NCBI GenBank assembly: GCA_965178125.1
Contig: OZ237763.1
Location: forward strand, 496,001-560,000
Origin: Bilabrum cf. latius
Taxonomy: Eukaryota
Reading direction: 5' to 3'
DNA: 64,000 bases
Numbering within the stretch: position 1 is the stretch's first letter; each line of letters begins with the position of its first letter. Positions 5,432 through 63,097 of this stretch are shown here, in pieces. The notes under the pieces are model-generated. The model was given only the letters and a program-made list of their open reading frames with translations, had not been told where the DNA came from and did no database searches. Both the position numbers and the translations under genes were made by a program.

Positions 5432-5503
5432 GGGCCGTTGGTCTAGTGGTATGATTCTCCTTTAGGGTAGGAGAAGTCCCGGGTTCAATTCCCGGATGGC
5501 CCC
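5432..5503 (+). tRNA. tRNA-Pro(AGG)
   Basis: GGGCCGT/ATGGCCC acceptor stem, TGGTCTAGTGG A-box, anticodon arm CTCCT-TTAGGGT-AGGAG, T arm CCGGG-TTCAATT-CCCGG, downstream T-tract (TTTCTTTTTT) as Pol III terminator. Confidence 0.95.
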
Positions 5504-7662: not shown

Positions 7663-7863
7663 GCCACATGCGCATGTTAAATAGCATCGGGAATGGGATA
7701 TGGGTGTCAATACGCAAGGTTCATTCTGTACATCCGGATTGGTAGCCGCGCCACGGCACTGCGGCACTGCTCCAACCCACTTCAATGCTCCCAGATTCTG
7801 TGTGCATTGCTCAGGTGCAAGCGAAATCATCTGAGCAGTATCTCACCGAATACTATCATTGAC

Positions 7864-32876: not shown

Positions 32877-33121
32877 GGTTAGCCAAGATCCTCGAAAGCT
32901 TAGATGTGGCAAAAAACAGCTAAATCACCGCTGGGATGCTCCCAATCAGTGCAGTGAAAGCAATTGCTGCGAACTATGAGGCAGTCAGGCTTCGAATTAT
33001 TCTAGCCCACCTCCTCAGTAGCGTTCTTGCCGAGTGCTCTTGTCCGAATTTCATTGGAAGGTAACGTGCTATTATCTTACCTGGATTATTTGATTTCAGA
33101 TTCCCGTCTAGCGACAGCAGC
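32877..33121. promoter_or_regulatory. Putative bidirectional promoter between the HECT and NBAS-like genes
   Basis: 245-bp AT-richer gap between divergent inferred ATGs at 32876 (-) and 33122 (+). Positional inference only; no motif identified. Confidence 0.45.
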
Positions 33122-36100: not shown

Positions 36101-39100
36101 CTCCAGCTGACTTGGGCAAAGGCAGGCGATGCTGCCCAGCCGGAGTATCCCGGAGCCTCGCGCGATCCAGAGCTACTGGTCGCAGATCTGATTTCGATCT
36201 TGCACCGCACTGATCTTAGCGAGGGAGCTCTGGCAGGACTCGTTGCGGCGCACAGCGACCCCGACGTTCTGGCTGAGTGGTACATCTCTCGGGCAATTCA
36301 GATCGACGAAGAGGGCGGGTCGCTTGACGCCTCGTGTGCCATCCTCATGTACGGCTCAGAGTCGGTTCGAGCGTCTGCAGCGGCAACACGGAAAATTCAA
36401 GACGTGCTCAAGCAGGCAGCGAGGCTCTACCACGTGTGCTCGTCGATGTCGGCATTCCAGTCCGTTGGCTTGGGACAGTGGCTCAGCTCCCCGCAGGAGG
36501 GTCGGTGCTCGCTGCTGCTGCGCGGATGCACGCCCGGATCTGCACGAGCTGTCTTCAAGACTCGCCTGCTGCCGCTGCTGTCATTGTCTTCGACGCGCTA
36601 TGGAAGGCACACGCTCACGTTTTAGGGCGAATCTGTCGACCTCTCTGCCCTTGCTATCGACAGGTCCAAGGACCAGCGAGAGGAGGACTGCTTGGCCATG
36701 CAGCGCGCTGTGGCCGTCAAGCTGTGTGGCAGACTCGAAGATGAAGCCAGAGTAATTCAAGAAGATTCCATTGAGATTCATCAAAGTTCGGCAGGGCAGG
36801 CTTCCAGCGCTGCTTCCAATCCGTTCGACACCGTCAGGATCGTTCTGCAGCTAGTGGATCCGGGCCAGCCGCTAGACACCGTACCGAGCATAGATTTTGC
36901 CATGTTGTTGTGTGTAGCGGTTGCAAAGAAGCTCTTGCGCCTGTTTTACGACACGCCAGCTAATAGGTAGCACCTGCGACAGTCACTGCTGGAGTCGGCT
37001 GCAGCGGTGCTGGAGAGCGCCCCGGATGGTCTCCTGGTCGGAGCCGCAGGTGGCAGCATAGAAACCGTTCGGTTAGGTGCACTAGATAGCAGCAGCACTT
37101 TCTCCGATGCGCGCACGCTAGTCTCAATGGTCTCAGAGATTCGGACGCTCCAGTCGTCCCCTAGGTCTAAGCTTCGCGCGATCAGGGCAAGTATGCAGCA
37201 ACAGCTATCCACGCTGCGAACCAGGGAAAGGTATGGCCTCCGGTCTGACGGAATTGATGAGAGCATAGATCGCGTTGCGGAGACAGCCGTCGTGAAGCTA
37301 GATGTAGAGAGGTGCCGAGCTCCTGTTGGTCTGCACCGGGCAGCTGCGTCTTTGCTGGACGCACTGTTGCAACTTGTTCCCAGCTGCTCTTAGGTTCGCT
37401 CGGATGATGCTAGGGGGCTGTATTTCATTGTGGAGACAGTATGCGGAGAGTTGGAATCGGGATCAGATCAGAAAACGGTAGAGACAAGCGTAAGGGACGC
37501 AGCATTACTTGTAGACGCCCGATGCAACCCGTCCAGCAGTGCAGGCAGTGGCGTTGTGGATCTGACTTTGTGCAAGCAATGGGTCCTGTTTCAAAGCATG
37601 GCGATTCACTGCAGCTAGGGACGCTTTTCAGTTGCTTCAAAGCTTGCAAATGCTTGCGATACAGACGTGGAGCGGACATGCGCAGCCGCTGGTGCATGCG
37701 CGGCAGCAGCCAACCTACTGGTCGCGAGGGAGGGAGCGTGCGAGGCGGCTAGGCTGCATCCCGGGCTGCAATCTCACTGCGAGCCGGCGTGCTTGCGCGG
37801 GGCTTTGCGGTCCATCCAGTCCGCAGAACTTGCATCGTCAGCTCTGTCGAGTATCACTGGGGGCGAGAGCCACGGCTAGATGGCATAGAGTATTTTGGCG
37901 ATGGGCCGTGTGGCTGTTGTTCTTCAGATTCTCGGGCTGTCAATGAAACCCCTGCGCTCGATTCGGACAGGTGTGGTGGGCCTCAACCAAGTTACGGCAG
38001 AGATGGCGTAGGAATTTGCGAGCCGAGGTGCGTGTCCCGGCTGGTCCCGGCTGGAGTGGCTGCCCGGGGGTTATTCCAGGATAGAGGAGGCCGCGTCGAT
38101 GAATCTCGCGTCAGTGGCAATAGCCCATACCTAGATTGGACGACGTCAGTGTGCCGACTCCAGCAGTGACGGCGCTACCGCACTCACAGCAGCTATCGAT
38201 CAAGCCGAGCATTCCTTGTCCATGCTGCACGGTGAACTGTCGAATCCACACGCAGCCTACTTGCGGGCAGGTAGCAGCGACAACAACGAGGAGGGGGGCG
38301 GGATCGCTGCCATTTCCAGCGTTGCAACTACGATTGGGTCTGCCGTGAGCCAACGCATTGCAGGGGTGGCGGCAGCAGTATCACAGCGGCTATCGAATCC
38401 GGAGCAAGCCCCCGAGAACGACAACGAGGATGGTGCAGCAAGCACATAGGGTGGCACGAATGGATAGTAGCACAGCGGGTACGTGCCGGGCCAGGGCCTT
38501 ACTAGCTTGGTGGGCGATCTGCTTGGAAGTGTGACGATCGGTGGGAGAACCATCAGTAGTGCAATGCACCTGGATCGGTTTGGCTCCGCTGTGGCCGGCA
38601 TGGGCAGCATGGCGCTGCAAGCTGCTACCACAGCACTGGCGAGCGATGGCAGTGCAGCCGCCGAAGAGGGGCTGGACCAGAGGTCAGCAGGGGTGATTCT
38701 GATCGAAAAAATATACGAGCAAGGCCTGGATACCGAACCGAATCCCTTTGATGTGAGTTTGGCTGAAGATCCCGTGGAAATGCCTGACAAGGATGCGGTG
38801 CAACAATGTTTGGCCCCGTTCAGGGAAGTTGCTCGACTGCTGCAGATCGCACAACGACGGGTCGCTTCGACTGCACTTGAACCCCATCGGGCAGACCACT
38901 GGGAAGCCTTTGCGTGTAGTAAGGCTTGCAAGATACTGTAGCTGCAATCTCCCGCCCCAGGCAGCGGGATGCCGCCCGTGGATGTTATTTTATCCATGCG
39001 GCCGAATAGGCACACGATCGAGGACCAGCCCATGGACCCGTCGTTTGAGACATACCAAAACAGCTGGATCGCGGCAACTGGCAGAATCGATCCTGATGCT

Positions 39101-42100
39101 CGGCCGCAAGAAGTGCTATTGCATGTGCAGGCTCTCCTTGCCCCGTGTGCAGCGGGAGGGGCATCCCTCGCGGGCGGATTCGACGCGCACGCGTCCTATG
39201 TGACTCGACGCGACGCTCTCTCCGCATTTCGGTCGATGAACCGGCATGCCGAACTTGCCGAGTAGGAAGACGCGAGGCACGGTATCGCACTGGCCCTGTC
39301 ACTGTCAGATCATGCAGCCGCTGGCGCTTGCTTCGCAACCATAGCCGAGCCTTTCCGCTGGCTTCGTTTGGCAGCCGCTGCAGTGCTCGACCTCGTCCTT
39401 CGTTGCGATGTAGCGATCCTGTAGTCATCTAGTCCCAAGAAGCTGGAAGTTGCGGCAAAGTCGTACGTGCAGCCCGCAGCGGCTTCAGGTGCAGAGGTTA
39501 GCGAATTGGCTGCGGTGCATGCTGAAGCCAGCGAGGCGATTGTGGCGTTGGCTGCATTGAGGCTCGCTGCTGGGGACATAGCCTCACGGTTTGGCTGCTT
39601 TGCCGTTGGATTGCTTGGAAGCAAGACCGTGTCTCAGTCTGGGGCCCGTGTCCCGCCAAGGGTAGTACCTGGCAGCGTTCAAGTAGCTGAAGGTCGGGCA
39701 AGACTGCTAGGGCCTGGCTTGGACGCTCCTGACTTTGATGGAGGGTGGATCGAAGGTGCACAGTCTGCCATCCGTTGCATGACTGGAGATTCAGTTCTGG
39801 TACTTTGTCAGGGAGTTGAAGATGACTTGCTCCGCGTTCGTGGCGGCATGGATAGCTAGCCTGGGCCTTTGGAGCACGCACGTGTAGCCGCGGACGATAC
39901 TTAGGCCCATCGGTAGGACGAACTTGACATGGAGACACTTGGCGAGGACGATCTGAGACAGGTCATTGCAGCGGCAGGATCGACGAGCATGCCCGTGCCG
40001 AGTCTTCTCAGTGCACTGACGTACGCAAGGATGACTGCGCCTGGAAGCACTTAGTCTCAATTTCATCTAGTAATTAGTTCGCTGTTAGCCGGAATAAGGA
40101 GAAACGATGACCAGCCGCTGCCCCATGCGCCATCTCCGGCACCAGGACCGGTGCCTAGCATATCACCAAAGACTAGCGAGTCTGTGGCTGGAACAGCCCA
40201 GCGACAAGCCATCGAGAGGGTCGGGTGTCGCGCTGCCTTGGTTGCGTGCGGGCTGCTGCTTGAGGAGGCGGAGGGTTCGGATCGCCCAGGACTGCCATTG
40301 GTAGGTCGCGGAGCTGGGCAGGTTGGAGATGCGGAGAAACTGGCAATGCAAGCGGCCTCGCTCGCGTTGTAGCACGGTTCGGAGTAGCTCAGGATAATCC
40401 TACTCCGGTCATTTCAATGTGCATGCTGCTTTGTGCACGGGACTGTCCGCTCCGCATCGATTGCAAGAAGTGCACTCTCGGTCTTGCTCCATGTCTTGCC
40501 TCCAGAGGTGCGCTCAGACTGCGCCAGTCGACTTGGTGAGCAGCTACCGCCGCACTCACCTGATAGCATGGAGGAGAGCCGCCTTGTGCACGCACTTAGG
40601 GAGGCTGTGGCTGGCTTAGGCGAGGACAACCTGCGCAGCTTACTGTCAAGTGTTTCTCTCACTGGGCTAGTTGCGTGCCCGGCACGCACTGGATGTGCGA
40701 TTTCGGGGTCATGTTCTAAACTTATTCCGATCTGCACGCCTGCTTTGATTGGTGTGTAGGGGTGGTGCGACGATCTTCACAAGATGACCCGTGGTGCTGC
40801 TGCAGGCTCAACAGCAGTTAAGCCAGCTGTGAGTGGGAGGCAAAGCGTTCTTGAGATTGTTGGCGTCCGGGCAGTGATCCGTATCATGGGCAAAACGGCT
40901 GAGCCAGCGGCCCTCCGCCCTTGGCTACATGGCGGACACGAAGAGCCGGAGGCAGAAGAGGCAACGAATCCTGGTTTTGGCGTAATGAGCGCCGGGGACC
41001 TGCCTGCTTTAGGGCGCAGCATGCTCATGAATGCACTTCAATGCGCCGCGCTGCCTGCAGTTGGGGCCCTGGCCAAATCACTGGCCAGACTGAGCCTCAG
41101 CCTATCTAAAGCCGTCGACGACGGTCACCAAGAGGAGGCTCGCAAAGAGCACGGTCGATCGGCGCAGCGCGCGCTGCTAGAGTGCTGGGCCACTGCCAGT
41201 TGTAGCATGTGGTCTCGAGGGCAACATGAGGTTGCTGCGCCGCTAGATTGCGCCGGCTCTGTGGCGGCCACGGCTGGCAAATTGATCGCTGCTCGACGGA
41301 TGCCGATGGATGCGCTGCCCCGACTCGCATGGCTCTGCGGCTTACTTCCTCCCTGCAGTGCAATTTTGAAGAAGATTGGGATGCCACAGGCCTGCGAGGC
41401 GACCGTTTCCAGCGCCTGGATCGAGCCGATATCGGTCGTGCAGGCTGCAACACTTGAGGCAAGGCCTTCAGTTGACTGGTCTCGCGCGTCCAAATCGCTC
41501 ATGAACGCGATTCGCACCGCCGCATGCTCCGTGATCGGCCGTGATCCCTCGGACGAAGCAGCATCCAAGCACCCGAGGCTGCTCGCGGCGTACATTGCGT
41601 CGACCGCCCAGCTTCGTGCCATTGCCGCGCTGGATGGCTGCATGCAAGGTGGCAGGGCAGATTTAGCGCATATCATTCCTGCCATCGCGGCAATTTCCAG
41701 CAGATTGCGCGCTTCAGTGCCCGGCCATGACGCCAGTGGAGATATTGGGGTACAAACCGCGGCCACAGGCAGTGGTACACTAGTTGTACCGGACCTGTTT
41801 GGCGGGGTTGGGGTTGCCCAAGCCGCTGTGCTGCTCGGTCTTTCCGATGAGGATGCCAGCGCTCTGGTCGAGGCCTTCAGTGGGCCTGAAGGTACGAGCT
41901 AGCTGCAAGAAGCAAAGCTTCGCCTCGCTACTGCCTCGCTATCTGCGTGCATTCTAGGCGCATCGAAAGAGCTAGATACACCAAACGCGGGTGGCCGCCT
42001 CGACGGTGCCGGCCAAGGAAGCGAGTCATTGCACGACACATTGAATTTGCTTGAGCTGCTGTGCTCCGAGCAAATCACATCTGCTTCAGCAATTGCTTCC

Positions 42101-44566
42101 ATTCCTACTGTTTGCCGTGAGGTCGGGAACTGGGTACGTAGCCTTGGCAGTGGGTGCGAGGCTCCCGTCGATTCTGGCGCGGCTGACTGCGTAAAGGATG
42201 TAGGACCAACAGGGCATATCCTAGATCTGGCACACAAGCTGCTCAGTATCATTGCTGGTGCCAGTGGGGACAATGCCAAGGCAGCCAGGCGTGCGCTCGT
42301 GTCTCTGATTGAAACCGTGCAGCCGGAATCCGCTAAACCTGGTGGTGGTGACAGCGCGCCAGGCAGCAGTGCCCTTGCCGATGCCAAGAGACGAGATCGA
42401 GTGGATGAGTTGCTCAGTTTGGTAGGTCTACGAGGCTCAAGCAACATCGTCTCGTGGCTCTCAACCGGCGCACTGCCGCCCATTGAGCACGCAGATCGCG
42501 ACGGACTCAGCGCTGGCGCAGCCGGGCAGGCAGACCAAGCCGGGCCGAGTGCCGGAGGTAGCCTTGTCGATGGGCACGAGGCAAGCTTGGAGCTTGAGCG
42601 CGCGCTCAATACGGTAAACAGTGAAACTGCCGATGCGGCTGAAGCCACCGACGCGACTTGGAAACGGCTTGCTGCTCGATGCGCACTAATCGCTTGGCTG
42701 CTGACGGGCTAGTCAACATCGGACACTACTGTAGCATTGGACAGCCTGCGCTGCATAGCCAGTGCGTCCGCAGGAGACGCATCGGGTGCCGAGTAGCTTG
42801 CTATTGGCGCTGTTGCCCCGATGCATGGCTGCCTGCTCGCGATGAGCACACGGCTGGGCAGCTCCCAAAGTCTCGGTGCTCGACGACTCAAGGTGGACGT
42901 GTAGGTCGTAGTGGAGCTGCAGACGACCATCCTGCGGCTCCTGCTGCAAGAACTAGCGCAGATTGGGTCGAGCGACGGAGCTAAGGATGGTGGTACATAG
43001 CCAGCGGCTTCGATCGATGTAGAATTGTGTGTGTGCGCCCGTCAAGCATGCGAGGCGATCGTGCTCCTCGGTGAGCTGCAGCACGGCGAGGTGGAGCCCG
43101 ATGCGCGCGAGTAGCTGCTGCTGCTGGCAATGAATGCCCTTGCTATGGCCACCAGGGATGGGACAGAGGCTCTGCCGGCCACTGCTGCTGTCGTCGCGGG
43201 TCTTGCTCTCTGGCTAGGGATGCGGGGCGGGGCGGACGGGTCGGTACCCTCGGACCTGCGGCGGCCTATCGATGACGCCCTGTTCGACTCATCATCGGCG
43301 GCCGCAGAGATGCTCTAGAGGGACGCAGGCTCCTCTCTGGAGTCGTGTGCGCTAGCAGGTGCGGTCACGTACGCTGCCATGCTGGTTGGAGTCGGCATGC
43401 TCAGCGAAGTCAGTCCAGCATCCATGCAGTCCGTGCTCAAGTGCATCCCACTCGCAGCAGGCGGGTGGGCCTGCGGGAGCCTGGAGGGTCTCTCTGTGGG
43501 AGCCATGGGCTGCGGCTTGCTGCTGTGCGAGCTCGTCCTGTCTGGGAGCGTCGATACTGCTGCTGACGCGGCTTTCCCCGTGGACTCCAGCACTGACGGA
43601 GGCCAGAGTCCCAGTGGCTCTGACTAGGTGCCCAGCGACTCGGATTCGCTCCGCTACCACAAGATCCGAGGGATGCTTCATTGGCTACTGCAACTCCAAA
43701 GCGACAGTGCACAACCGGGGGTCGCACAGACCGCTTGGGCAGGCAGCCGCACAGTGAGTCTGCTGCAGTCGTTGGCGGGCAGCACAGGGATGCTTGCCCT
43801 TCAGAAAGTAGATGCCGTGAGGGCGCGCGTGATCGAGGCAGAGAGGGCGGCGGGGGAGAGAGCGGCCGCTGCTCAGGCCGCCTTTGCCGCGGCCAAGGAG
43901 AGCTCCTCGGGCATGATCAGCTGGCTCTCCAGCTCTGTGTAGGCCGCTGCCGAGTCTGCTTTCGGTGGGGGTGAGCACGCAGGCGATACTGGGGCTGGCT
44001 TGAAAGCCGGTGTACCTACTAGTGCTATCGGTAGTGGCACAAGCGGGGCTGAAGGATCGACTGGGGCGGGTTCAGGTCAATCCTCATCGCGTGGAGTTGA
44101 AGGCGCTGGAAGGGCTCCCAGCCAGCGCTCTGGTGCATTGCTTCGGTCTGTGGAGGGTGTGCTGTAGCCTTCGCCTGGTCTCAGATAGCCTGCTACCTCT
44201 CATTTTGCAATCGGGGGGGACGGGTTGGGAAGCGCCGAAGCTGGGACTCTTGGGGTTCGTGCACAGGCAAGCGAGACTCGGGGCGATGATGCAGACGCTG
44301 ACAATGCTGACGATGGCTGGGGAGAAGATTGGGGCGATGAGCCTGCGAATGAAGGGCTTGGTTCTACTCGTGCAAGTGGGCCCGGTGCCGCGATGGATCC
44401 GGATGCGAGTGCGAGGGAGGGGCAGCAACGAGTTGGACAGTTGGTCAACACGGGGTCTGGTTCCGCCACAGGTGACTCCACGACCAAGCCTGGGAGTGCT
44501 GCACAGACAGGGGGGTCGATTTCAGTCGATGATCCAGATCTGACTTTTGATGATGACGACTGGTGA
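33122..44566 (+). CDS. NBAS / Sec39 / MIP2-like subunit of the NRZ(Dsl1) ER tethering complex, up to ~3814 aa
   Basis: About 20 ORF fragments in one frame joined only by TAG (about 40 by hand, including TAGTAG near 33965 and 38465). Sec39-like segments FLKSQPKALAPFLMAVLQCIPAGVPVSGFAHLLP and LAEWYISRAIQIDEEGGSLDASCAILMYG; acidic Trp tail DDGWGEDWGDE...FDDDDW; ends TGA. An in-frame intron near the 5' end cannot be excluded. Confidence 0.78.
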
Positions 44567-44625
44567 GTTGGGTGCAGTTTGCTCTGCGTCGAATCTTTAC
44601 TTTATAGACGCTTCTCATCTTCAAC

Positions 44626-47100
44626 ATGGAGTTTGAATGTGTAGCAACCCAGCAGAAAGTCAAGGTGGATCATACCGACTCCACACGGTCGGCTGCAATG
44701 CAGCAGGCACAGGAACTCTGTTTCGCACAAGGTGCAAAGATTCGTCTTTCCTTTAATCCTCGGTAGGTTTCGGACCACATCCTCGACTATCTGAGCGGCT
44801 GGCTCAGCTCTTGTGGATGTGTAGAGTATCTTTATATATCTGGATATTATCCGGGTGAATAGGATAGCTCCAGTGCTCTGTGCACCTGCCTTGCATCGTT
44901 GCAATGCTCTGCGCCCAGGCTGCTCAAAATTGATGTTGGGAACTGCAGCGTTCTCTCTGAAGATGAGAAGGCCATGGAGAGCGTGTGTGTCTTAATTAAG
45001 CGTGCTACTGCACTGAGAGAGCTGGTGTTTCCTGTTGGTGACATCGCCGTCCAACAGCAACCCGTATCGCTCGTTAGTCCCTCTGTTGAACGTTTGCAGC
45101 TAGTCGCTGGCAACCTCACGCAAATCAGGGATACGGGAACACCGGATTTACACCTAGCAAGCTGTATGGGCAAGTTTCCCCGCTTGAAATATGTCGGACT
45201 CGACTACTATGGACGAGGAATGGCGGCCTTCCTTGAGCGACTTCTCAGCACCACTCGAACGATCGAGTCCCTCCGAACTGCAGGACTATCTGCCTTGGAT
45301 CAACCAGCGAACTGCCCTGTAGCACTGTGGGACGCTATTGCTACTAATTCATCGCTTGTAGAGGTGGACTGCGAAGGCGTGGTGCCAAGCAACACGGCCG
45401 GTTGCGAGGCCATGCGCAAAGCACTCGCTGCTCACCCCAACCTCAGTGCCCTCACGCTGCGGCATATCGGGAATTATTGTGAAACAGAGGGGTGCATTTA
45501 GCCTGTCAGAGACGGCCTGGAATTAAACCCCCGTGCCAAGCTCCGTGACCTGATCATCGGTCACCACTACCCGCAAAACGAGGACAAGGCCGTCGAAGGG
45601 CTCGCCGGCCATCTGCCTTCGATCCGGTCGCTTAAGCTTCAGCTCCCGCGTCTCCAAAGCATGTAGGCCCTTGCACGTGGACTGCATAGCATCACTTCCC
45701 GGCTCGAGTGTATTGAAGCGTACGGGGCGCAGGATCTACCAGCCGATGCCGCTAGCCATGAACAGCTTGCCGAAGGTCTTGAGGCCTGTCCCACTCTGAA
45801 GCGGGTCAAGCTGACAATGGAGTACCATGCAGAAGATGCCAAGCTTGCTGCATACACAGCAGCCATGCGTTCGAGTACGATCGAGCACATCGATTTGAGG
45901 GGCTACGATTACTTCTCTCTGGCCGACAAGATATTGGCCTTCGGCCAAGCGGCTGCCAACGACACCGTGACGTACCTCGACCTGGAGTATTTTGCGGATC
46001 ACCATGCGCCACTTTATCGCCTACTAACCCAGAATGTGTCCTTAAATCACATTCAACGCTGCTGTGCGGGTCTGTCGCCCGAAGAAGGGCAAGGGCAAAG
46101 AGGCAGGTTTCTGCAAGCTTTGGGAATGAACCGCGGACTCTGCTCTATCAGTGTCTAGCTACTGGGGTATCAGGATGGGGCTGGCCCCGTGTGCGAAATG
46201 CTAAAATCCAACATAACGCTCCAGAATGTCGGTATTAGTGGCTTTACTCTGAAGGAGGAGGAGGTGGGCTAGCTGATGGCGTGTATTAGAGCACACTGCC
46301 CTGGCCTGAAGCAGCTGCACATCCCAGACATGGTCTCGGATACCGAGACTCCGATGCTAGCGCAGGCCGCTGTTTAGTCCGACCGTTCCGACGTGGTGCA
46401 CGATTGGATAAAGGTCGACCCTCTAGCAGAGCGGGCTGCGTGCGTTCTGCGCCTGCTTGCCAATCCTGAGCTGTGCCGAAGTCTGGACCAGCCCATGGCC
46501 ATACAATATTGCGCAAGAGCTTTCGGGCTCGCGGTGGAAGCCGACAATCCCGCCGATGTGATTCTGGTCAGCCAGGCCCTGCTAGACCTGGCAGGGGTGA
46601 GCAGGATCCAAGACAATGGAGTGGCCATGCCGGTTGGGGTCGATGGCAAGACACCCATACTAGCGTGCGGCCCCGCGGCTGGTTCGCAGAAAGTGCTGCA
46701 GTTGATCCGGGGTTCGAACATGTACACCCACGCGGGACGTGTGGTCAAGGGCAGGTACGGGCTTCGCAGGGAAGACGCCGGCGGGAGGTGGGCAGGGGCC
46801 GCGAAGAGGTGCCAGAGATTCCTGGAGGCTTCGGTGGGGTGGCGTCGCGACCGACTGCTGCAGTGGCGCAGGGCACTGCGGGCCAAGCGGGATGCTACGA
46901 TGGTCTTCCAGGCGGCGAGGGATGGGCGGCCTCTGGAACTGGGAAAGCGACTGAGGCTGGGGAAGCTGGCAGGAGGTCTGGACATGGAGGGCGAGGTGGA
47001 GCACGATGGCGTGAGCATCCGCGTGACCGCGAGGGAAGCCGCCCTCATGAAGGGACACATGGAGTGCGCGGAGCTGATCCGGGAGGCTACTGAGCGGTAA
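44626..47100 (+). CDS. RNI-like leucine-rich-repeat protein with C-terminal ankyrin-like module, ~824 aa
   Basis: One frame, seven in-frame TAG, ends TAA. Repeats such as AIATNSSLVEVDC, ALAAHPNLSALTLRH, AAANDTVTYLDLEY, ALGMNRGLCSISV, MLKSNITLQNVGI; C-terminal MVFQAARDGRPLELGKRLRLGKLAGGLD...AALMKGHMECAELI. Confidence 0.8.
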
Positions 47101-51438: not shown

Positions 51439-51626
51439 TGGGGATTTTCTTACGTTAACTTGCTTACATGAGACTTGATAACGTCACTAGCTTGCTTTGC
51501 TCGGTAATTAAGTCCAGCTTTCTGTGGTTCGCGATTGAAGCAGTTGCTTTCCGATTAACCGGAACACCACTGGCATGCGAGCGAGCAAATCTCAGCTGCA
51601 GTCGGTCACAGTCTATAAGACCCGTT

Positions 51627-54600
51627 ATGCCCAGGTTGACTCGAATTCGAGTCAAAAACTTTAAATCATATTCCTCAGATGTCGTAGTGCAGTTGCCTGG
51701 AAGTGGGGCACGCGTAATCAGCTTGCATGGTGAAAATGGGTGCGGCAAGAGCTCCCTCATGGACGCTATCGCGTGGGGACTTGGAGCGGCTCCGAAACAA
51801 GTCGGGGCGAGTAAATCAAGCCAGTTGATTTGCAAGTCATCTAACAAGCAAGCTGTACCTTCGAAAGGCTCTCGGGCAACCGCCCACGGAGAAGTCGAGT
51901 TGCAGTTTAGCGTTGGAGGCTCGAAGCACAACGTGTTGACCGTATTCGACGATAGAGGCAGAAAATTCAAAATTAACGGAAAGTCATCATCTCTGGCCTA
52001 GCTGCAGCAGTTCGTTTTCTCCACGCTACGCTTGTAGACGCAACCCTCATTGGCAGCCTACATCAAGCAAGCCACCACCGCCGGCATGCTGGAGACCGGT
52101 GCAGCAACCAGCAAGTACCTCGAGGATGCACTTGGAATCTCTGGAGCGTTAAAAACTCTATCTCTCACTGCCGTATCGAGCCAGAAAAGCGCGGTCGCGA
52201 TACAAGCAGCTGAGGCAGCTATCCTTGCGGCCCGCCGGCACCAAGGTGCGAGGAGCTCTGATGAGATTGCTGGAGAAGCCATCAAAGCAGCCGTACAGGC
52301 TACCACATGCATCATTTATCGTGTAGCAGATGAATCGCTGCGCCAGGTCGAGGGCTTGCTCGAGGAGTACAATGCCGACAGCAACGAGATGCAACCAGAG
52401 GAGAGCCAGGTCGCCGAGGTCTGGGCTGGGGCATCAGCGCTGCTCAATAGCCAGGTAGATGTTCCACCGACGACATTTCAAGACCTCGTATCCAACCTTC
52501 AGCAAGAGGTGGAGAATACGGAACGAGCGCGGGCAGCGGCGGAGAAGGCCGGTGCCGTGGTCACAGGCGCACAGCAGAGCGCACTGCAGGCCATCCAGTA
52601 CGCAAAGGCATCCGCTGCATCGGTTGCAGATGCAGCCACGACTGGTCCAGCTCATGATTCAGTCGAAACAGAGATGGGATCCCTCAAGGACCAGCTTAGA
52701 GAGGGCCTATTCCGGGCACGCGCCTCGCTCAAGCAGCCACTGAATCTGCTGGCCAGCGCAGCTGCATCTGAGTACTGCCCGCAGTCCCTGGCCGATGCTG
52801 GCCTCGATGCAAGCACCACAGCTCTTCCATCCACTGCTACACTGACCAGTGCCATGAAATCGCTGGGAAAGGAGAGTCGGGCGATCCGCCAGCGGGTCGG
52901 GGCTGCCTTGCACCTCATCCGTCGGGTTCGCCTGGTCGCTGGTGGGGAGCAGGTTGTTACCTCGCTACCAGATTCAATGAAGATGTGCGCAGTGGTAGAA
53001 GTATTTGTAGATGCATGGAACGGGGGCTCTGAAGATGTGGTGCACCGCAAGCGCTTGGGATCCGGCTCGGTGGAGATTCGCAGGACTGGTGCTGTCGTGG
53101 CTGTCACGTTCTCTGCAACCGGGGCATCACAGGAACTTGCCGTTGCTGATATAGCCTCGTTGCAGCAGGGAATTGAATCCATTTGGACGGAAGCCGTGTC
53201 TGCAAAGCATCCTTCAGCCGCTGGTCGCACGGGAGACACGCAACACTCCGTGGTGAGAGCGCACGAGGTGTGCCGGTTTCAAGTCGACGCGATGGACAGC
53301 GCAGATATTGCTGCGACTGTGCAGTCAACGGCTCATGCAAGCGCGATAAGCACGGCCAAGATGTTGCACAGACAACTCTCAATTGCCGAGCTCCGTCGGC
53401 TAGCCATCATGGCTGGTGTTGTCATACAGGACCACAAGCTCCGCTCGGCTGTGTGCACGTCCCCTGCTGAGGCAAAGCAATTCTTCACCAAGATTGGCGA
53501 TCGCGAGCGGGTTACTGCTTGGCCACTGTCCGAGCTGAAGGCGAAGTCGATCAGGCATCGCGAGACGAGGGTGGCGGCAGCAGGCAAGCAAGCCGGCATA
53601 TCGGATCCAGGCACAGTGCTTGTGCCCGCACCAGGTGCAGACAACCTCGGTCGATTCGCAGTCGACATGATCCTTGGAAGGACTTGCCTGGCTACTGATG
53701 ACACAACTGCCAAGACGAGCATTTCTACTGCTGCAGGCTTGCGATCCGTCACAACGGACGGCCTCACGCACTCGCACGGTTCGGTGCGGCAGCCACCCTT
53801 TCCTTACGGCACCGCAAGCAAGAAAGAGCTCGCCAAGCATCTTTCGAAGTCAACGTCACTGATGGTTATGATTCTGCTTTCTGCAGCAGAGAAGCAGCTC
53901 CTTAGTGCGCTGCTGGCTTTTGCTCTGGACTGCGTAGCTCGCTCCGGGCTGGGTGCGGTGCTCGATGGTGTCAGGGAAGCGGCAGCGCTGAATGACGAAC
54001 TGGCTGAACTAGACTCTCAAGACTGCAATAGCGCTGAACAAGAGAATGAACAAGAAGGAGACGCCGACTCTGATGAGCAGCTTTAGTTGCAAGAGGCTCT
54101 ACGGGACTGTCTGGTGGAGCTTCACAAGGCTGGCAGGTTAGCAACTTCGCTTACGTCGCTGCAGACGGCAGTCTCGCGAGCAATCAAGAGCACTGAAGCA
54201 GCAATGCTAGCTGATCGGGGGTCGCTTGAGTTGGTGCAAGCGGCTGAAGCCGCAGTGGCTGACGTCCTGATTGTCCGGTTAGATTGCTCGAAGCAGCTTG
54301 AACAGCGGGTCCATGAGCTCAAGACGGCACTTCAGAAAGCCAACGCGTGTGTAGCACAGTACACGGCCGCAGAACAACAAGCATAGATGCGGTAGCAAGT
54401 GTCAAGCCTCCTGAATAAGCTCCAGACGAAGTTAACGGAGGTAGTAGAGAAGGTTGGTAGGGCACCAGTTCCGCCGGACCCAGCAGAGTGCATCGGCAAG
54501 GGCCTCCAAGACGTGCTGCAAGGAAGCTAGCGCATGGTGCAGGGTGACGTGAGCCAAGCTGTGACCAAAGCTACAGACAAGGGCTTTGCTTTGCTGCTAG

Positions 54601-55415
54601 CATCAGTCCGCGACAAATGCAGAGGCAGCCTGGCTGCACCCCGAGCGGTCAAGGCGTTGCAGGCCGCAGAGAGCTGCACGACTCGCACCAGCTCTCTTCT
54701 AGCATGCATCCGCGAAGGAACCATGCCGACAGCGACGCTATCCGATTGCGCTAAGCACGCTCATTTGGCGTTGTCGCACGGCAGAGCTGCGCTTGCTACA
54801 CTGGAGGCCATGCCAAGCGGCCAGGATGGCGTCAACCATGAGGCAATCGCAGCTGAGAGCGCACGGCTGCAGAAGCTCTACAGGCAGGCAAATCTTTTGA
54901 AGTCCTTGCACGAGAAGAAACTGGTGCCCAGGCTATAGGCAATGATCGAGAGTCGCAGAGTAGATGGCATCAGCGGGTTAAACGAGTCTCTGGGTGAGCT
55001 CGTGCCATCGATGGTGCCTCGCCACGCTGTGAACGTCGAGCGTGGGAGCTACGAAGAGGGGGTTGGATTCAAGCTTGCGGTACGCCGGGACGGCCAGACG
55101 CTATCCCCTTCCGGACTGTCGGGCGGGCAGCGAAGCATGGTGGCGTGCGCACTGCTGCTGGCCGTCAACCGCATGCATAAGTCCCCGCTGATCCTGCTCG
55201 ACGAGGTTGACGCAGCCTTGGACGCGACGAATCGCGCTAGATTCGCCTCGATCTTGCAGGAGCATCCTGCACTTGCAGACACGCAAGTCCTGGTGATCTC
55301 CCACCACGATCTTGTCCGCAGAGTGGCCAGCCACAGCATCGAGCTGGAGTGGAAGGAGGGCGGGGGAGGCAGGCGGGTGGTCGCGTCCGTGAAGAAGAAC
55401 AAGGTGTCTGGCTGA
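51627..55415 (+). CDS. Divergent SMC-family ATPase (SMC2-like hinge and C-terminal head), ~1262 aa
   Basis: KNFKSY; Walker A GENGCGKSSLMDAI; Q-loop YIKQ; hinge-like RVTAWPLSELK / ILGRTCLATDDTTAK / RSVTTDG; signature LSGGQRS; Walker B LILLDEVDAALD; QVLVISHH. Seven in-frame TAG; ends TGA. Confidence 0.88.
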
Positions 55416-55465: not shown

Positions 55466-58007
55466 TCAGGTCCCAGTTCCTGGCCGTGAACCAGCCCCAC
55501 TCCTCTGTGCTAGCATGCGGCTCACGTCATCTCTGCTCATTGGTTGCGTCGGCTAGGGCCCCTGCGATGCGCTCCTGCCATGCATAGCTCCTGCTCCCAT
55601 CATCCCACCCTGAGGCATTGCTTGCTGCGACCCCATGCCACCCGAATAACCCCCCGCGCCTGCCATCCCGCTGTGCGAAGCAAACTGCTGAGAGTAAGCC
55701 CCCCTGTGCCCCATGCCCCCACCAGGCATACCACCGTACGACGCTGCCAATCCACCGGCAGATTGCATCCCCATGGGGTAGCCCACTCCTGCTTGCTATC
55801 CATACGGGCTACTTATGCTGCCCATCCCCATACCCGATCCCGCTCCCATGCCAGCGCCCATGCCCATTCCCCCCATGCCGGGCCCCTGCTGACCGATGGG
55901 CATCCCTGTGGATGCAAACCGCTTTAAACCGCCGTAACCAGCAGCTGACTGGCCATCGATGCTATGGGCACTAGCAAACGAAGCACCGCTGGCATGGTGC
56001 GGGCCCGGTCCACTGGCCAAGGACCGCGGGGTGAAACCCGTGCTGCTAGCTCCCACTGAGCCAAGTGCGCCAGTGGAGACCGCACTGCTTCCTCCCGGTG
56101 GTGCAACAGCAGCTGTAGAGCTCCCACTGCCCTCTTGGATGACACCTCCAAACAGATCGTCGTCGTCTTCATCCTACGCTCCACCTGCTGCCTTGGGTTG
56201 GCTCCCCGGCCCGCCCGAAGCATTGGACGGTGCATCCGATCCGAACAGGTCGTCTTCGTCTTCATCATCACTGGGAGGCTGCAAACCTGCTTGCGTATCG
56301 CCCCCGCCGTCACCTCCTCCACCTTCACAAAATGGGTCAAAGTCGTCCCCATCTTCGTCTCGATCCTGTGGTGCCGCTCCCCCGCTAGCCCCTGAAGCAG
56401 GCGGGTCGTCACCACCATCATCTCCAAACGGATCGAAATCGCTTCCGTCTCCACCGTCCGTAGCGGTAGACTTCTTTGCCTTCGTCTTGCCTGCCCCCGG
56501 GTTGGCAGGGGCGCTGTCATCACCTCCGAAAGGGGACCAGTCCGAGCCACCGTCGTCACCACCACCAGCAGAAGCAGCAGCAGCAGCAGCACTACTAGAG
56601 GCTTCGGGCCTGCTGCCCCTGCCCCTCTTCGACGCCGTTCCTGTAGCCTGCTTCCCTTTGCCTCCGATCTGCCTGCCCCCCCTCGTCCTCCTACTAGAGG
56701 AGGTGGAGGACCCGCTGCCACCACCGCCCGCCTGCGCACCCTGTTGCGCGAGGCTGAGCACCGCATCGACTGCGGACGGCGCCGCTGCCTTGGCCCTGTG
56801 GGCGCGAGAACGACCGCCTTTACCTTTCGCAGACTCGGCTGCCACGGTGGCAGACTGCTCTTCTCCCGTGGGGCACTGCTTCCCGGCCTTGCTTAACAAG
56901 AGTGCCCTGAGCTTGGATGCGGTAGAGGACTGCCTCAGTGCACGCTCGCCGCCGCCGACCTTCATGGCGCGAGAGGCTGCCGCGATAAATGAGAGGATAG
57001 CCTCGCACGTGGGACGCTCCTCGGGGTCTATCCGGAGACACGCGCGCAGCAGTTCAATGCATATTGGCGGGGTGGATGCCGCCTCGTCTGGCAGCGTGTA
57101 GGTCGCGCTCACGATGGCTAGGACCCCAGTCGTCTGGAACGGGTGAGATAGGAACAAAATGGCGTGCCATAGGCAGCCGAGGGCCCACACATCCACCCGC
57201 TCGTCGATTGCGTGGCTGCTGTAGAGGTCAACCATTTCTGGGGCTCGGAAGTGCGGCGTGGTGAACCGCTCGATCCTATCCTGCTCGTCGGTTCGGTCGC
57301 GCTTGTCCTTGATGGGCCCTTGCCTGTCACTGACTGATCCAAAGTCGCATAGCCGCAGCTTTTTGTCGGCCCCAATGAGCACATTTTCCAGCTTTAGGTC
57401 TCGATGCGCGATCGGCGGCGACATCTTGTGCATGTGGGCAACCGCTGATACTATCTGGCCAAAGCAGCCTAGCGCCTGATTCAGTGGCAATGCAGATGAA
57501 CGGCTGTTCAACTTGTCCAGAAGAGTTCCGCCCGGGCAATTCTCAAGCAACATCTCCACCTTAATTTTGTCGCTTGCCAATCGGGTTGACTACGCCTCGA
57601 GCAAGCGCACGATATGGGGATGCGAACCGAGAGCCCGCATGACCTTAACCTCATTCATGAGCTACTCTGTATTTTCGTCTCCCTGCGATGCAACATAAAG
57701 TGAAGGCCCACTACGATGCACCGAACCGTCGTGGCGCAAGGGACTGCAACTGCAAGCAGATACAGCGTAATCACTTGAATACACAACATTCAGCCAACCC
57801 CGACGGCGTAACTATTGACATTGCACTCACCATCACCATCATAGTCTTCAAAACAATATTCTGGCCGCTGCTGGCGTCCCGCACCAAATCCACCGACCCG
57901 AAGCCACCCTCTGCCAGACGCTTTAGAACCGTCACTGATCTGCCACCCACGACGGTAGCTCGGGATTCACTACCATCTCCAAACGGGTCGACCGAAAAAG
58001 GGTCCAT
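55466..58007 (-). CDS. NAK-family Ser/Thr kinase (AAK1/BMP2K/GAK-like) with DPF-motif tail
   Basis: LAEGGFGSV, intron 57830-57683, E[Q]LMNEVKVMRALGSHPHIV, PPIAHRDLKLENVL, LCDFGS, TTPHFRAPEMVDLY, DVWALGC; tail with DFDPF, WSPF, DLFG. Five in-frame TAG; ends TGA at 55468-55466. Confidence 0.92.
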
Positions 58008-58136: not shown

Positions 58137-61100
58137 ATGGAATTCCGTGATGATGCTAAGAAGACTACAGATTACTCCTCAGCTGCCCCTCCTGAATCGT
58201 AGGCTGTAAAGGTGAGCGCCTGGGTCCCCGCAGAACTCGACGAATGCACCCTAGCAAAAGGTGAATTCCGATGCGTCGCTTGATTGGAGCCAACAAGTTC
58301 AACCTCTCAGGTTTACGTTCGTATGCGTCCACCGGCTGGAGGGGCCGCTGAAGCGTCCAGATAGTTTGTTCAAGACGAGGGGGACGAAGGCAAAGTGTCA
58401 CTGAAGGTGAGCAGGCTTGTGGCTCAACGTATCGCACAGTTTGAGCATCAGACGCCGTTACCCGTATATTCTGCCAGTACTTTTACTAAGTCGCAGACAT
58501 CGCTGCATGGCGAGCACTCATTTCGGTACAGCAAAGTATTCAGGTCGGACTCAGGCCAAGCGGACATATTCAACGAGGTCGGCCAGCCGATGGTAGATCA
58601 TTGCTTGGAAGGCTACAGCGCATGCGTTTTTGCTTACGGGTAGACGGGCAGTGGGAAAACTTACACAATGTTTGGAGATGCAGCGAACCAGGGCGTCATT
58701 CCGAGGTAAGGCCTCTTGATGATTGCACCCGATCCTTGCTCGCCTGCGAGTCGATCCAGCTGTTGCTGAGCTTACGAGCACCAGGCCTCCGATTGCATCG
58801 CAATCCATGCATCTCTCTATTTCCGTATGTGCCTGCTGCCCGTACTCTTTTGCACCGCAGGTCGCTGGATGTGGTGTTTCGTCAGCTGGCGGCGCGCAAC
58901 TCTTTCAAGGAAACCGCGGTCGTCGTGTCTTTCCTGGAGATCTACCTCGATAGAATACGAGACCTGGGTAGGGAATACCTCCTCGGCAAGCGGAAGGCAG
59001 ACCCCCGGTTCGGCATCGCAGAGGGCGAGGAGGTCTCATCTGCGCACGAGGGGGCGGAGGACGAGGACCCCTCGGCAAGCCAGAAGGGCACGAGCGACTG
59101 GTACCTGAACACATTCCGGCACGCTGGCAGGAGAAAACACGGGAGGCGCCGAAGCGTCACGAGCGCCCAAGGGGGCGGCTCCTCGGCTGCCGCATCGGAC
59201 GCAGACCCGCGGGCCCGCAGCTACGAGGAGGAGTCTTTAGACGTGCGGGAGGACGCCGACGGGCAGGTGTACGTCCGGGGACTCAGCAAGGTGCCTGTGC
59301 GGAACCCCAAGGAAGCCATGGACGTCGTTCTTTCGGGGTTCAAGATGCGAGCCACGCACGCCACGGACATGAACGAGGTCTCCTCGCGGTCGCACACGGT
59401 CTTTACCATACACCTGATGCAGAGGGACCGGGCCACTGGGGAACAAGTCTCGGGGCACCTCAACCTCGTGGATCTAGCCGGGTCTGAAAGGCTCTCCCGC
59501 AGCCACAGCGAAGGCCTCAGGATGACCGAGGCGCTGTCAATCAACTCGTCGCTGACCGCCCTGGGCAAGGTGGTGATGTCGCTGCACAAGGCGTCTGTAG
59601 TGACGGGGGGCGGGAGCGGTGGTGCCACGGATCACGAGCAGCTGCATGTGCCCTACCGCGACTCGAAGCTCACGAGGGTGCTCCAGAATTACCTCGGAGG
59701 GACCTCCTTCCTCGCCCTCCTCGCAACGCTGCACCCGCGCAAAGACGACGCTGACGAGAGCCTGTCCACGCTCCAGTTCGCGCACAGGTGCAGGTATATC
59801 GTCAACAGGCCCAAGGTGAACTACTCGCTGGCAGACTCATCGGACAAGGACAGACGGATCGCGGCTTTGACGAGCGAGAACGCGCTGCTCAGGAGGCAGC
59901 TGGCGCTCTCTAGGCTTGCCTGCAGGGTGAGGCTGGCCAGGCTGATGCTGGACGCGGGCGTGCGGGGCACGATCGCCGCTGACGGGCGATTCCAGGCTCC
60001 CGATGGAAAGCTGCTGGGAGTATCCGCCGAGATGGCCAACAAGAGCGACTACGTGAAGAAGGGAGCCAGGGTGCTCGTCACTGGCGGGGGGCCTCTGAGC
60101 GAGCAGGCCATCACCAAGGCGGCACAGGTGCTTCAGACAGAGGTGCGCAAGCTGTAGAAGCAGAAAGACACGAGCGGGCAGGTGGCAGGGGACGGGTCCG
60201 TGGCCAGCGGCGCCGCCTCTGACAGTTCCATGGCCGCCGCAATGAAGCGAAGATCCACGCAGGCGGAGGTGGAGCAGGCCGAGGAAGAGGTCGCTGGGAG
60301 GCTGATTGGGGAGCAGGCCATCGCTTCCACGCCGGGACTGAGGAGCCCGACGCTGGAGGACCTGGCCGGCATTCCGGCCGATGCGGCGGAGGAGGCCTCG
60401 GGCGGACCACGGCGTAGGAGGCAGAGCCAGATGGGCGGAGTGCTTGCCAAGCTGATCGCGGGAGGCAAGTCCGTGGGGCTGGACGAGCCCAGCGTGCAAA
60501 GCGCCGGATCCGCCGGTACCAGGCACGAGGACGTAAAGTGGGAGCAGATGGACGCCATGAACGGCTCCATGGCAGGCAGCATAGGAAGCGCCATCGGGGC
60601 GGGGATGGGAACGGGCAGCATGCCCGCTGGCAGCGTGGCTTCGGGGCGCACCGGTCGCAGTGGCAGGGGCCATGCTGGCATGGCACTGTCCGACACCGTG
60701 GGCAGCATGGACGAGTCGCTTTCTTCCGCGCTTGAGAGTGTCACCGGCGGTACCATTCCTCTGGGGACTGGACCCATGGGGGGGGCTGGGCTTGGGGTGG
60801 CGGGAGGAGGCGCCACGCGTCGGGGGCGTCGGAATCGGAGGACTTCTCGGGTGTCTCAGGCGGTGAGAGGCGGGGGCAGTCGTCGGAGCCTGGGCTCGGG
60901 CTCGAGGCGATCCAGAGGGGGGAAGGGCGGTGCGAGCGACAGCGGCGGTCGAGTGGAAGGTGACGGTGGGTCCGTGGGTGGCGGTGGGGATCAGTACGGC
61001 GGCAGCGTGGGGTCACACACGGGACTCAGGCTGACCGATATCGCGGGCGGGGATCTGGCTGCGGGCGTGCCCGGCGCGATGATGGCCGCAGCGTACCACG

Positions 61101-63097
61101 AGGCGCTGGAGCTGGCTCGCCTGGCCAACGACGGCGGTCCGACGATCGCGCTGCAGCAGCGGATCGACGAGTACAGGGCCCGCATCAGGGAGCTCAAGGA
61201 CGAGCTGGACACGGAGAGGAGCGCCAGCAAGAAAGAGCTGGAGCGTCTGCAGTCCCAGCTGAGGAAGTCAAGGGCGAGGCAGGCGGCCAGCAAGAGGCAG
61301 GCGGAAGAGTCGGAGCGCAAGATGCGGGACGCGCTGGACGACACGAGCGCGTCGTATTCGAGACAGGTCGCCTCCGTGATAGCCCAGTCCCAGATCGCGG
61401 TGTCTAGGGAACACAAACTCGTGTCTAAGGTTCCTGACGAGCTCAGAGTGTCCAGTGAGGCGCTACATACGGCTGAGAGGCTGCGGCAGGAGGCCCGAGC
61501 CCAGGAGGAGCAAAAAAGGACGCAGGAGGTCTCGAGGGCCACTCTCGCGGCGCAGGCGGAGCTGCAGCTCAAGGCCTCCCAGAGCAGGCTGGCGCTCAGG
61601 GGGCTTGAACAGAAGGTAAGGGAGGTGGAGAATGGCAAGCAGGAGGCCGAGCAAGCCAGGGAGCAGACGGAGAAGACGATCGCACAGGAGCTCAAGGCTG
61701 CGTGGAGGTATGCCGCGGGCCTCGCTGCCACCATTGATGACATCGAGGCGGGGCGGGCCCCCGTGAAGATCGACACGACGGGTCGGCGCTCGTTCGTCGT
61801 GAGGCGAGCCGCACTGCCGCCCAACCCGATGGCCACCTTGCCCGGAGGCATGCCGTACCTGCGCAAGCTGCTGGATGACGACTTCAAGGCGACGGGATCG
61901 AGGGGAGGAGGAGGAGGAGGAGGAGAGAACCAGAACGGTACAAGGCACGATGCGCCGTGGACGCTGAGCCGCAGCATGCGTGGCACAACCAAGACCAGGC
62001 AGGTGCCCAGGGCGCAGAGCGCTGCGTCAATCGGGACGAGCGGGCGTGCTGGCGACAGCAGGGGCCAGGGGTTCGGAGGTAGCGGAGCCCTGACCGGCAG
62101 CGCGGGGCGGCTGCCACTCCTGGACGCATCTGCAGGAAGGGTCGCGTTTGGAAGTGGCGACCAGGCCGGTGCCATTGCCCGGGCTATGCGGGATGGGTCG
62201 GGGGCGGGATCCGGTGCTGGCGCGTTTGCGGAGGATCGGGAGAACGAGCTGGGCGGCAGGCTACCTGATCCGGACCTTGGACCTGGGGTTCCAACTCCGG
62301 CGGAGAGGCCCCCGCCGTCTCCCAACAGCAGTGCCGGGCGAGGGAAGCCCCGGGGCGGCAGCAAGGTGATCGGGTGGGAGGGGGTCGGGCACGGGACCGG
62401 TGCGCTTGAGGCAGCGGGTGAGGGCAGGCCGCTGCACTCCCAGCCCAGCAACCACTCCTCTGTGCTCAAGGGCATCGAGCAGCAGCTGCAGCACCAAGAG
62501 AGGGAGAAGGAGAGGGGGGGCGAGAGCAAGACGTCGCTTGGCAGTGGTTCCAGCCGCCCCGCGTCTGGACTCTCTCTTCCTCCTGGCACGAGGCCGAGGA
62601 CTAGCTCGGGAGTGCATAGGCAAGGCCATGGGCAGGGGCAGGGGTACGGGGGCTCCTCAGGGGGCGACGGCTGGGGAACGGGCACTGCCATTGGCGCGCT
62701 TGAAAACCAGTTGGGGATACGTGAAGGGGGCAGGCAGCAGCCCAGCATGGCGAGTGGGGCTAGCAGCGGTAGCAGAAGGCTCCACGGATCCTTGGGCAGC
62801 CGCGATGATGGGGGTGAGGGCATGGTGATCGCGGGTGGCAGGCAGCCGTCCCCTTCGCCCATGTCGAGTGCGAGAGAGCTGCGGAACCGAGAGATCGCCG
62901 CGGCGCGCGCGGCGAGAGCTCGGCTGGAGGCACGGGCGAGAGGATCAGGGAACAACCCAGGGAACAGGCGGGTGCAGCATCCTGGAATGCACCAAAGGTC
63001 CGTTGGGTCTCTCGGGAGCGCCAGCGGCAGCAGGGGCGGTGGTGGGGCCTTGCACGGGCTCGCCGATCTGAGCAGCTCCAGTGGGTTCCGCGGGTGA
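58137..63097 (+). CDS. Kinesin-family motor protein (N-terminal motor, coiled coil, disordered tail)
   Basis: AVK|VYVRMRP, FAYG[TAG 58641]TGSGKTYTMFG, GVIPR, VSFLEIY, MNEVSSRSH, LVDLAGSER, HVPYRDSKLTRVLQ. Introns 58212-58310, 58407-58496, 58706-58860; TAG 60155 joins ORF 60182..63097; ends TGA. Confidence 0.95.

Follow-up and report, generated by a model that had tools for sequence, protein, structure and literature searches.

The nuclear genome from which the window analysed here was taken very probably uses a variant genetic code in which UAG specifies glutamine (Gln) while UAA and UGA remain stops. The window is a 64,000-nucleotide stretch (G000:C29:496001-560000) of a 48.6-Mb, 111-contig eukaryotic assembly, and the element in question is a TAG triplet in the P-loop of a kinesin motor gene. 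Judged from sequence, UAG is a third Gln codon beside CAG and CAA, the kinesin TAG is one instance of it, and the gene around it is a normal, functional kinesin gene that follows the variant code. The original prediction, made from the letters of the window, had noticed the kinesin site; it did not say that the code extends to the whole genome and has a dedicated transfer RNA, tRNA(CUA).

The kinesin TAG occupies positions 58641-58643 of the forward strand, and the surrounding codons (58629-58670) are present as originally quoted, FAYG*TGSGKTYTM. In the comparison with Pfam Kinesin (PF00225) that had been proposed, the P-loop exon matches at E 2e-24. In the three Protein Data Bank alignments displayed out of 25 matches, the TAG stands opposite the Gln of FAYGQTGSGKT. 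Among the 120 closest outside homologues, all 64 that bear the motif have Gln at this column, the other 56 being without that stretch; these homologues came from an orthologue search, an earlier representative-library set having used a kinesin-8-type query whose homologues have Ala at the column, which makes that set uninformative here. The argument from consensus to Gln holds for these homologues and falls short for the column at large, which varies among paralogues (Ala, Lys, Met or Ser in kinesin-8-type and some other kinesins), and since the column is not invariant the P-loop TAG taken alone suggests Gln and does not prove it. Equally, the rest of the motor is intact in that the switch I and switch II motifs follow 3′ of the TAG, and the gene holds three in-frame TAG besides (58200, 58362 and 60155, in addition to 58641) before it stops with TGA at 63095-63097. 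The predicted protein has about 1538 amino acids, and its Cafeteria homologue is P0394. Contigs from three public runs (X1-X3) omit GT..AG introns and define the four exons; nine GT..AG or CT..AC joints were seen, with zero change at any covered TAG, and X1-X3 are regarded as transcripts because they are spliced. Neither of the two outcomes named in advance as damaging to the prediction was found: the exon with the TAG is present in the spliced contigs, which agree with it in every letter, and the kinesin is not a pseudogene, because in-frame TAG is common to essential genes such as those for release factor eRF1, glutamyl-tRNA synthetase (GluRS), dyneins and Rabs.

The same triplet recurs in frame across the genome. 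In the window, frames of 4995, 3833, 1518, 1318 and 847 codons appear once TAG is read through; they contain 35, 41, 5, 7 and 8 TAG and close with TGA or TAA, and since the two longest hold 35 and 41 TAG the pattern is beyond chance. Outside the window, 19 dynein heavy-chain genes were sampled at 10 kb apiece (61,982 codons in all), and with TAG read through all 19 stretches are open for 2404-3333 codons; one of them has 48 TAG, and none has an internal TAA or TGA, compared with 2603 TGA and 313 TAA in the two shifted frames. The Gln-type codons of this sample comprise 2262 CAG, 391 CAA and 270 TAG. Thirty kinesin motor matches contain 31 in-frame TAG and, among 9952 codons, one TGA that is probably part of an intron. 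At the P-loop column, the 19 motif matches from 30 kinesin loci and the window have CAG in eight cases, TAG in four, CAA in three and another codon in four; two further TAG were found there by alignment. Besides the kinesin of the window, five kinesins of the genome carry TAG at this position. By gene, TAG makes up 0.6-25% of Gln codons, a share that falls with rising G+C content at third codon positions (GC3), and CAA falls likewise.

The identity of the amino acid was read from an alignment with 120 outside dyneins, in which the columns of 153 TAG, out of 270, are covered by at least 80 homologues. Where a column is at least 90% conserved, TAG stands at Gln in 29 of 42 cases, at Glu in seven, at Arg in two and at other residues in four, and the Gln share is much the same for CAG (325/472) and CAA (34/53). 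Seen from the columns, TAG fills 29 of 538 Gln positions, 7 of 785 for Glu, and none of the 512 for Tyr, 499 for Trp or 2093 for Leu. Summed log-odds over the 153 columns are positive for Gln (+60) and negative for Glu (-157), Lys (-182), Leu (-303), Tyr (-404) and Trp (-460), the same procedure having assigned all 61 sense codons correctly. The original choice of Gln over Leu, Glu, Tyr, Trp or pyrrolysine is thereby borne out genome-wide. An alignment of dynein paralogues alone places TAG at Gln in 23 of 33 cases, and Gln is enriched 1.5-fold around TAG, as it is around CAG.

Gene ends tell the complementary story. The 33 ends that could be fixed by homology or motif are TGA in 26 cases, TAA in seven and TAG in none, a sample that bounds the terminal share of TAG only to below about 9%. 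They comprise 12 dynein ends (10 TGA, 2 TAA; seven from the first set and five from twelve further stretches), 20 Ras-family loci, out of 30, in which a prenylation-type motif is followed by TGA (16) or TAA (4), and the eRF1 gene, which ends with TAA. At two loci (L230 and L274), the true stop is reached only if a TAG that precedes it by 12 and about 20 codons, respectively, is read through. In 79 frame-confident open reading frames from 757 kb, a set rich in dyneins, the next 25 codons look non-coding after 4 of 153 TAG and 3 of 138 CAA, compared with 26 of 46 true TAA or TGA ends.

A candidate decoder is present. One intact tRNA gene with anticodon CUA lies on the minus strand at G000:C23:907607-907679; it scores 69.8 bits against RF00005, folds into a fully paired cloverleaf and is followed by a T-run. 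It is assigned to the same organism because its contig has genes with in-frame TAG. The CUA anticodon can pair with UAG, not with UAA. Neither a second CUA gene nor any UUA gene was found in one family scan and four DNA or pattern searches, which variant or intron-bearing genes can escape. ARAGORN labels the gene as pyrrolysine, a label that derives from the anticodon. tRNA-Pyl has a short D-loop and a 3-nucleotide variable arm, and a pyrrolysine system, in which UAG would be confined to special sites and read with the help of PylRS, is contradicted by the standard cloverleaf with its 5-nucleotide variable loop and by the spread of TAG over Gln columns, no search for PylRS having been made. 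When the arms were compared one by one with those of other nuclear tRNAs, the acceptor and anticodon stems matched tRNA-Tyr(GUA) at 20 of 24 nucleotides, both differences being compensatory pairs; the runner-up among the 28 others reached 12/24, tRNA-Gln(CUG) 12/24 and tRNA-Gln(UUG) 6/24. The D-stem (8/8), the T-loop and the discriminator G73 resemble tRNA-Gln(UUG). In eukaryotes, Tyr identity resides in C1-G72 and A73 (PMC9976931; this and the papers cited below as far as their available portions go), and tRNA(CUA) keeps C1-G72 and has G73 in place of A73. A Tyr amber suppressor that inserts Tyr is contradicted by G73 and by the absence of TAG from all 512 Tyr columns.

Two oddities were seen among the other tRNA genes. 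Both copies of tRNA-Gln(CUG) (L093, L094; G000:C7) have an A-A mismatch at the fourth acceptor pair and are strongly unlike tRNA-Gln(UUG). Two nuclear tRNA-Ile genes (L014:1501-1573 and L111; G000:C32 and C4) carry the anticodon GAU, where eukaryotic tRNA-Ile normally has A34/inosine; in this genome, A34 is found in the tRNAs for Ala, Thr and Pro.

On the side of termination, eRF1 (G000:C35) has in-frame TAG at two places: a column with Gln in 108 of 110 homologues, and Leu69 in human numbering, which is Leu in 117 of 120. Ser60 of TASNIKS is replaced by Val and Asn30 by Asp, states found in 0 of 120 and 0 of 112 homologues, and further changes are Gly29Ala, Asn129Ser, Lys130His and one at position 126. 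A search with PF03950 returned two genes, one for glutaminyl-tRNA synthetase (GlnRS) and one whose sequence reads as that of a GluRS, and no additional synthetase gene. The single GlnRS would be expected to charge tRNA(CUA) with Gln, and the charged tRNA would outcompete an eRF1 that reads UAG poorly. The eRF1 changes are candidates for the lost recognition of UAG, none of them proven causal, and they stay candidates because N30A is inert and L69A of slight effect in yeast and because structure 8ip8 has Gln69. For that last reason Leu69Gln was rejected as a diagnostic change; 8ip8 is presumably wheat eRF1, from an organism with the standard code. In yeast eRF1, L69A lifts UAG read-through slightly and N30A is without effect (PMC4381064).

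Other readings of UAG have to be weighed, and the points that weigh against a uniform assignment to Gln, among them the yeast and 8ip8 data just given, are told here with the readings they favour. A single nonsense codon in a conserved motif usually has a local cause, which for the kinesin could be a pseudogene, an error in sequencing or the restoration of CAG by U-to-C editing, and none of the runs listed is recorded as RNA, the transcript label of X1-X3 being a guess; these runs are contigs, moreover, in which minority editing would be hidden. Such a cause is nonetheless hardly credible given that DNA run X4 agrees with the assembly, that the spliced contigs keep the letters, that five other kinesins have TAG at the same column, that hundreds of TAG stand in intact genes and that a cognate tRNA is present. 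Insertion of Glu, or of a Gln/Glu mixture, by a decoder derived from tRNA-Glu would suit the seven TAG at Glu columns as well as the tRNA itself, whose anticodon loop ends in A37-C38 and whose D-stem matches tRNA-Glu(CUC) at 7/8. Glu relative to Gln is indeed more frequent at TAG than at CAG columns (7:29 vs 23:325, p=0.015), and at 70% conservation the Gln columns of TAG come to 33/63, beside 382/695 for CAG and 40/81 for CAA. Against this reading, which we regard as very improbable, stand the log-odds (Gln +60 vs Glu -157), a Glu:Gln ratio that differs from that of GAG (p 4e-31) and equals that of CAA (7:29 vs 6:34, p=0.76), and the 98% conserved columns, with 17 Gln vs 3 Glu for TAG and 19 vs 4 for CAA; the excess of Glu may reflect rare codons at relaxed sites, GAG being a single base change from TAG. 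Finally, UAG could be ambiguous, meaning Gln inside genes and stop near some 3′ ends as in Condylostoma or Blastocrithidia, or the code could be a leaky intermediate. This would fit an eRF1 that keeps its core motifs (GTS, NIKS, E55, S70 and YxCxxxF), the single tRNA(CUA) gene found, the rarity of TAG in high-GC3 genes and its absence among the final 10 codons at 42 clean ends, a sample too small to judge, with five CAA and nine CAG; no end could be used from 10 of the 30 Ras loci and from 7 of the 12 further dynein stretches. Yet TAG closes none of the 33 fixed ends, the sequence 3′ of TAG is coding as often as that 3′ of CAA, 48 TAG in one dynein stretch would require near-complete read-through, and CAA drops with GC3 just as TAG does. 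Context-dependent stopping at UAG is therefore unlikely, and an ambiguous or intermediate code as a whole is improbable.

Granted that UAG means Gln, the origin of its decoder is a separate and more evenly balanced matter. We lean slightly towards descent of tRNA(CUA) from tRNA-Tyr(GUA) with a subsequent switch to Gln identity: G34 would have mutated to C, after which A73 was lost and a Gln-type G73, D-stem and T-loop were gained. The stem comparison favours this route, as does a variable loop of 5 nucleotides in both tRNA(CUA) and tRNA-Tyr, against 4 in both tRNA-Gln; identity with Tyr at 10 of 12 stem pairs has, roughly, p ~0.0005 at a 1-in-3 background and ~0.015 over 28 comparisons. The alternative, a plausible one to which we give distinctly less weight, is that the ancestor of tRNA(CUA) was a tRNA-Gln, or a tRNA outside the sampled set, and that the resemblance to tRNA-Tyr is due to chance. 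The Gln(UUG)-like D-stem, T-loop and G73 speak for it, and descent from Gln(CUG) is the simplest of the proposed routes (PMC5304391). Over the full length, moreover, tRNA(CUA) matches Tyr at 50 of 73 positions and Gln(UUG) at 48, and the inventory is partial, with 63 of 780 family candidates scored and His, Asp, Leu and others not seen. For these two reasons the odds of a Tyr origin are near even. A literature search, with most subscription journals outside its scope, found no Tyr-derived Gln suppressor tRNA.

Among known codes, the present one is in effect NCBI translation table 15. The closest parallel is Iotanema spirale (PMC5304391, PMC9161772), in which only UAG is reassigned, likewise to Gln, UAA is a stop and close relatives use the standard code. 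Iotanema is a fornicate represented by a transcriptome only, whose tRNA(CUA) is predicted rather than seen, and its eRF1 has T32G, whereas the eRF1 described here keeps GTS and differs at Ser60, Asn30 and Leu69. Table 15 also applies to the ciliates Hartmannula sinica and Trochilia petrani, where UAG is Gln, a dual meaning is not indicated, the suppressor tRNA is undetected in both and 58-70% of internal UAG fall at conserved Gln, compared with 52-69% here (PMC11687900). In contrast to these two, UAA and UGA both end genes in the present genome, UGA is dominant, and the genome is GC-rich and intron-poor. Other nuclear codes that change UAG separately assign it to Leu (rhizarian exLh and TARA phyllopharyngeans) or Ser (Scotinosphaera), and Oligohymenophorea PL0344 reads UAG as Glu and UAA as Lys (PMC5304391, PMC11687900, PMC10553269). 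These codes split UAG from UAA by means of a CUA anticodon, as here, and exLh also has a change at eRF1 Leu69; the suppressor tRNAs of all these lineages resemble the family of the amino acid they carry, whereas the present one has Tyr-like stems. Code 6 of ciliates and hexamitids has UAG=Gln with tRNA-Gln(CUA) in common with this code; as an assignment of both UAG and UAA to Gln it was rejected, UAA ending 7 of 33 genes, occurring in none of the 61,982 dynein codons and having no tRNA(UUA) that could be found.

The organism appears to be a bicosoecid near Cafeteria, a single-celled flagellate. The closest named dynein match is Cafeteria roenbergensis (66% identity), and the best named match of the kinesin is also Cafeteria. 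A quick IQ-TREE analysis of one dynein gene region, run without bootstrap on 34 rows (33 of 120 matches and one locus plus the query region), places it as sister to the Cafeteria clade with a Shimodaira-Hasegawa-like approximate likelihood ratio (SH-aLRT) of 100. For Cafeteria roenbergensis, the available text mentions a non-standard code only for the mitochondrion (PMC6972860), with UGA=Trp as in the mitochondrial contig here; the same mitochondrial assignment is given for Cafeteria and Cafileria (PMC6972860, PMC6723347). That contig (C111, 38.4 kb; L086, L117-L119) has in-frame TGA in keeping with code 4 and a tRNA with anticodon UCA, and all 29 of its open reading frames of at least 100 codons end with TAA, none with TAG. 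Nuclear reassignment of UAG in a stramenopile or bicosoecid was not found in the literature, a search that left most subscription journals outside its scope, so that a prior report is possible; the portions available of a 2024 stramenopile review contain none (PMC11412368).

Why does a lone reassigned stop matter? UAA and UAG nearly always change meaning jointly, and the handful of nuclear exceptions in the available literature includes no stramenopile. If the Tyr origin is true, the code was changed by a route other than anticodon mutation of a tRNA-Gln, and a decoder that moved from Tyr to Gln identity would open a new path to codon capture. The lineage offers a system in which to study how eRF1 drops UAG alone while UAA and UGA are kept: its genome is near-complete, its tRNA(CUA) is visible, it has a single eRF1 and a single GlnRS, and Cafeteria is a well-studied relative. 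Standard-code gene calls would truncate most of its long genes, and the viruses and virophages that infect it must match or avoid its code. All giant-virus isolates are from standard-code hosts (PMC13524828). The giant virus CroV infects Cafeteria; as a relative of Cafeteria, the organism is a candidate type of host for giant viruses with TAG=Gln, as a lead only. Tentatively, and at less than even chances for the package in its entirety, we propose that the organism is the first stramenopile to show an altered nuclear code and the first eukaryote with UAG alone reassigned to Gln whose decoder is in hand, that the decoder is a former Tyr amber suppressor, that UAG termination was lost without a change at T32, and that such organisms are a candidate host type for TAG=Gln giant viruses.

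Features of the window, with the in-frame TAG that each contains
Feature	Position	Strand	Remarks
Cation-efflux family frame	1554..4766	+	1 TAG; ends TGA
Cysteine-rich repeat / DOMON / cytochrome b561 frame	7681..12237	+	5 TAG; ends TGA
4995-codon frame, C-terminal HECT domain	17937..32924	-	35 TAG, of which one lies in the region matched to HECT; ends TGA
3833-codon frame	33065..44566	+	41 TAG; no Pfam family; ends TGA
847-codon frame	44557..47100	+	8 TAG; ends TAA
SMC-like frame	51459..55415	+	SMC_N halves joined only via read-through of 7 TAG; ends TGA
Protein kinase gene	55466..58007	-	Start inferred; one intron at about 57682-57830; TAG within kinase domain; ends TGA
Kinesin exon 1	58137..58211	+	Start ATG inferred; TAG 58200-58202; GT..AG joint in contigs X1, X2 and X3
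Kinesin exon 2	58311..58406	+	TAG 58362-58364; joints in X1
Kinesin exon 3	58497..58705	+	P-loop and its TAG; all 209 nucleotides within X1 record 4, zero differing letters listed; PF00225
Kinesin exon 4	58861..63097	+	Remaining motor, coiled coil and tail; TAG 60155-60157; ends TGA; contigs cover 58859-60766 and 60936-62180

Among the neighbours of the kinesin, the 847-codon frame is spanned by contigs of X1 and X2 (44653/44665-47150/47151) that show no other letters. The 3833-codon protein has an acidic, Trp-bearing C-terminus. The SMC-like protein has both ATPase halves and no Pfam hinge match, and its gene is covered barely or not at all by the spliced runs, with no cover mid-gene in X1-X3. 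At 5432-7608 of the window, 13.6 copies of a 154-bp repeat come immediately after tRNA-Pro(AGG), and a tandem array likewise lies 3′ of a tRNA-Met at L036.

Contig C12 of the assembly carries a tandem array of an 18S gene of 1700 nucleotides, and a second, different 18S type of 1802 nucleotides occurs at L004 (G000:C95:6099-7900). The latter looks dinoflagellate-like, and C95 probably belongs to another organism whose DNA is in the assembly.

Dyneins in metagenomes were scanned as well, and 80 of 584 confirmed loci were examined. Among these 80, 26 are without recurrent stops in frame, 40 have TAG and TAA, five have all three stops, five mainly TAG and four mainly TAA, and no close TAG-using relative was found; L122, the locus with the greatest similarity, has no stop in 2921 aligned codons and falls outside the clade of Cafeteria. 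Loci L132, L138, L170 and L173 (also L195) hold all three stops in frame, with TAA and TAG at Gln columns and TGA at conserved Arg columns (11/14, 21/25, 12/14 and 4/5 for the first four, respectively). They are probably from ciliates and suggest a nuclear code with UAA and UAG as Gln and UGA as Arg, for which a title-level literature search returned no match. Five others, L142, L181, L185, L187 and L199, have 10, 4, 4, 6 and 3 in-frame TAG and at most one TAA, their few conserved columns being mostly Gln, and may use UAG-only codes or code 6 with a bias towards G-ending codons.

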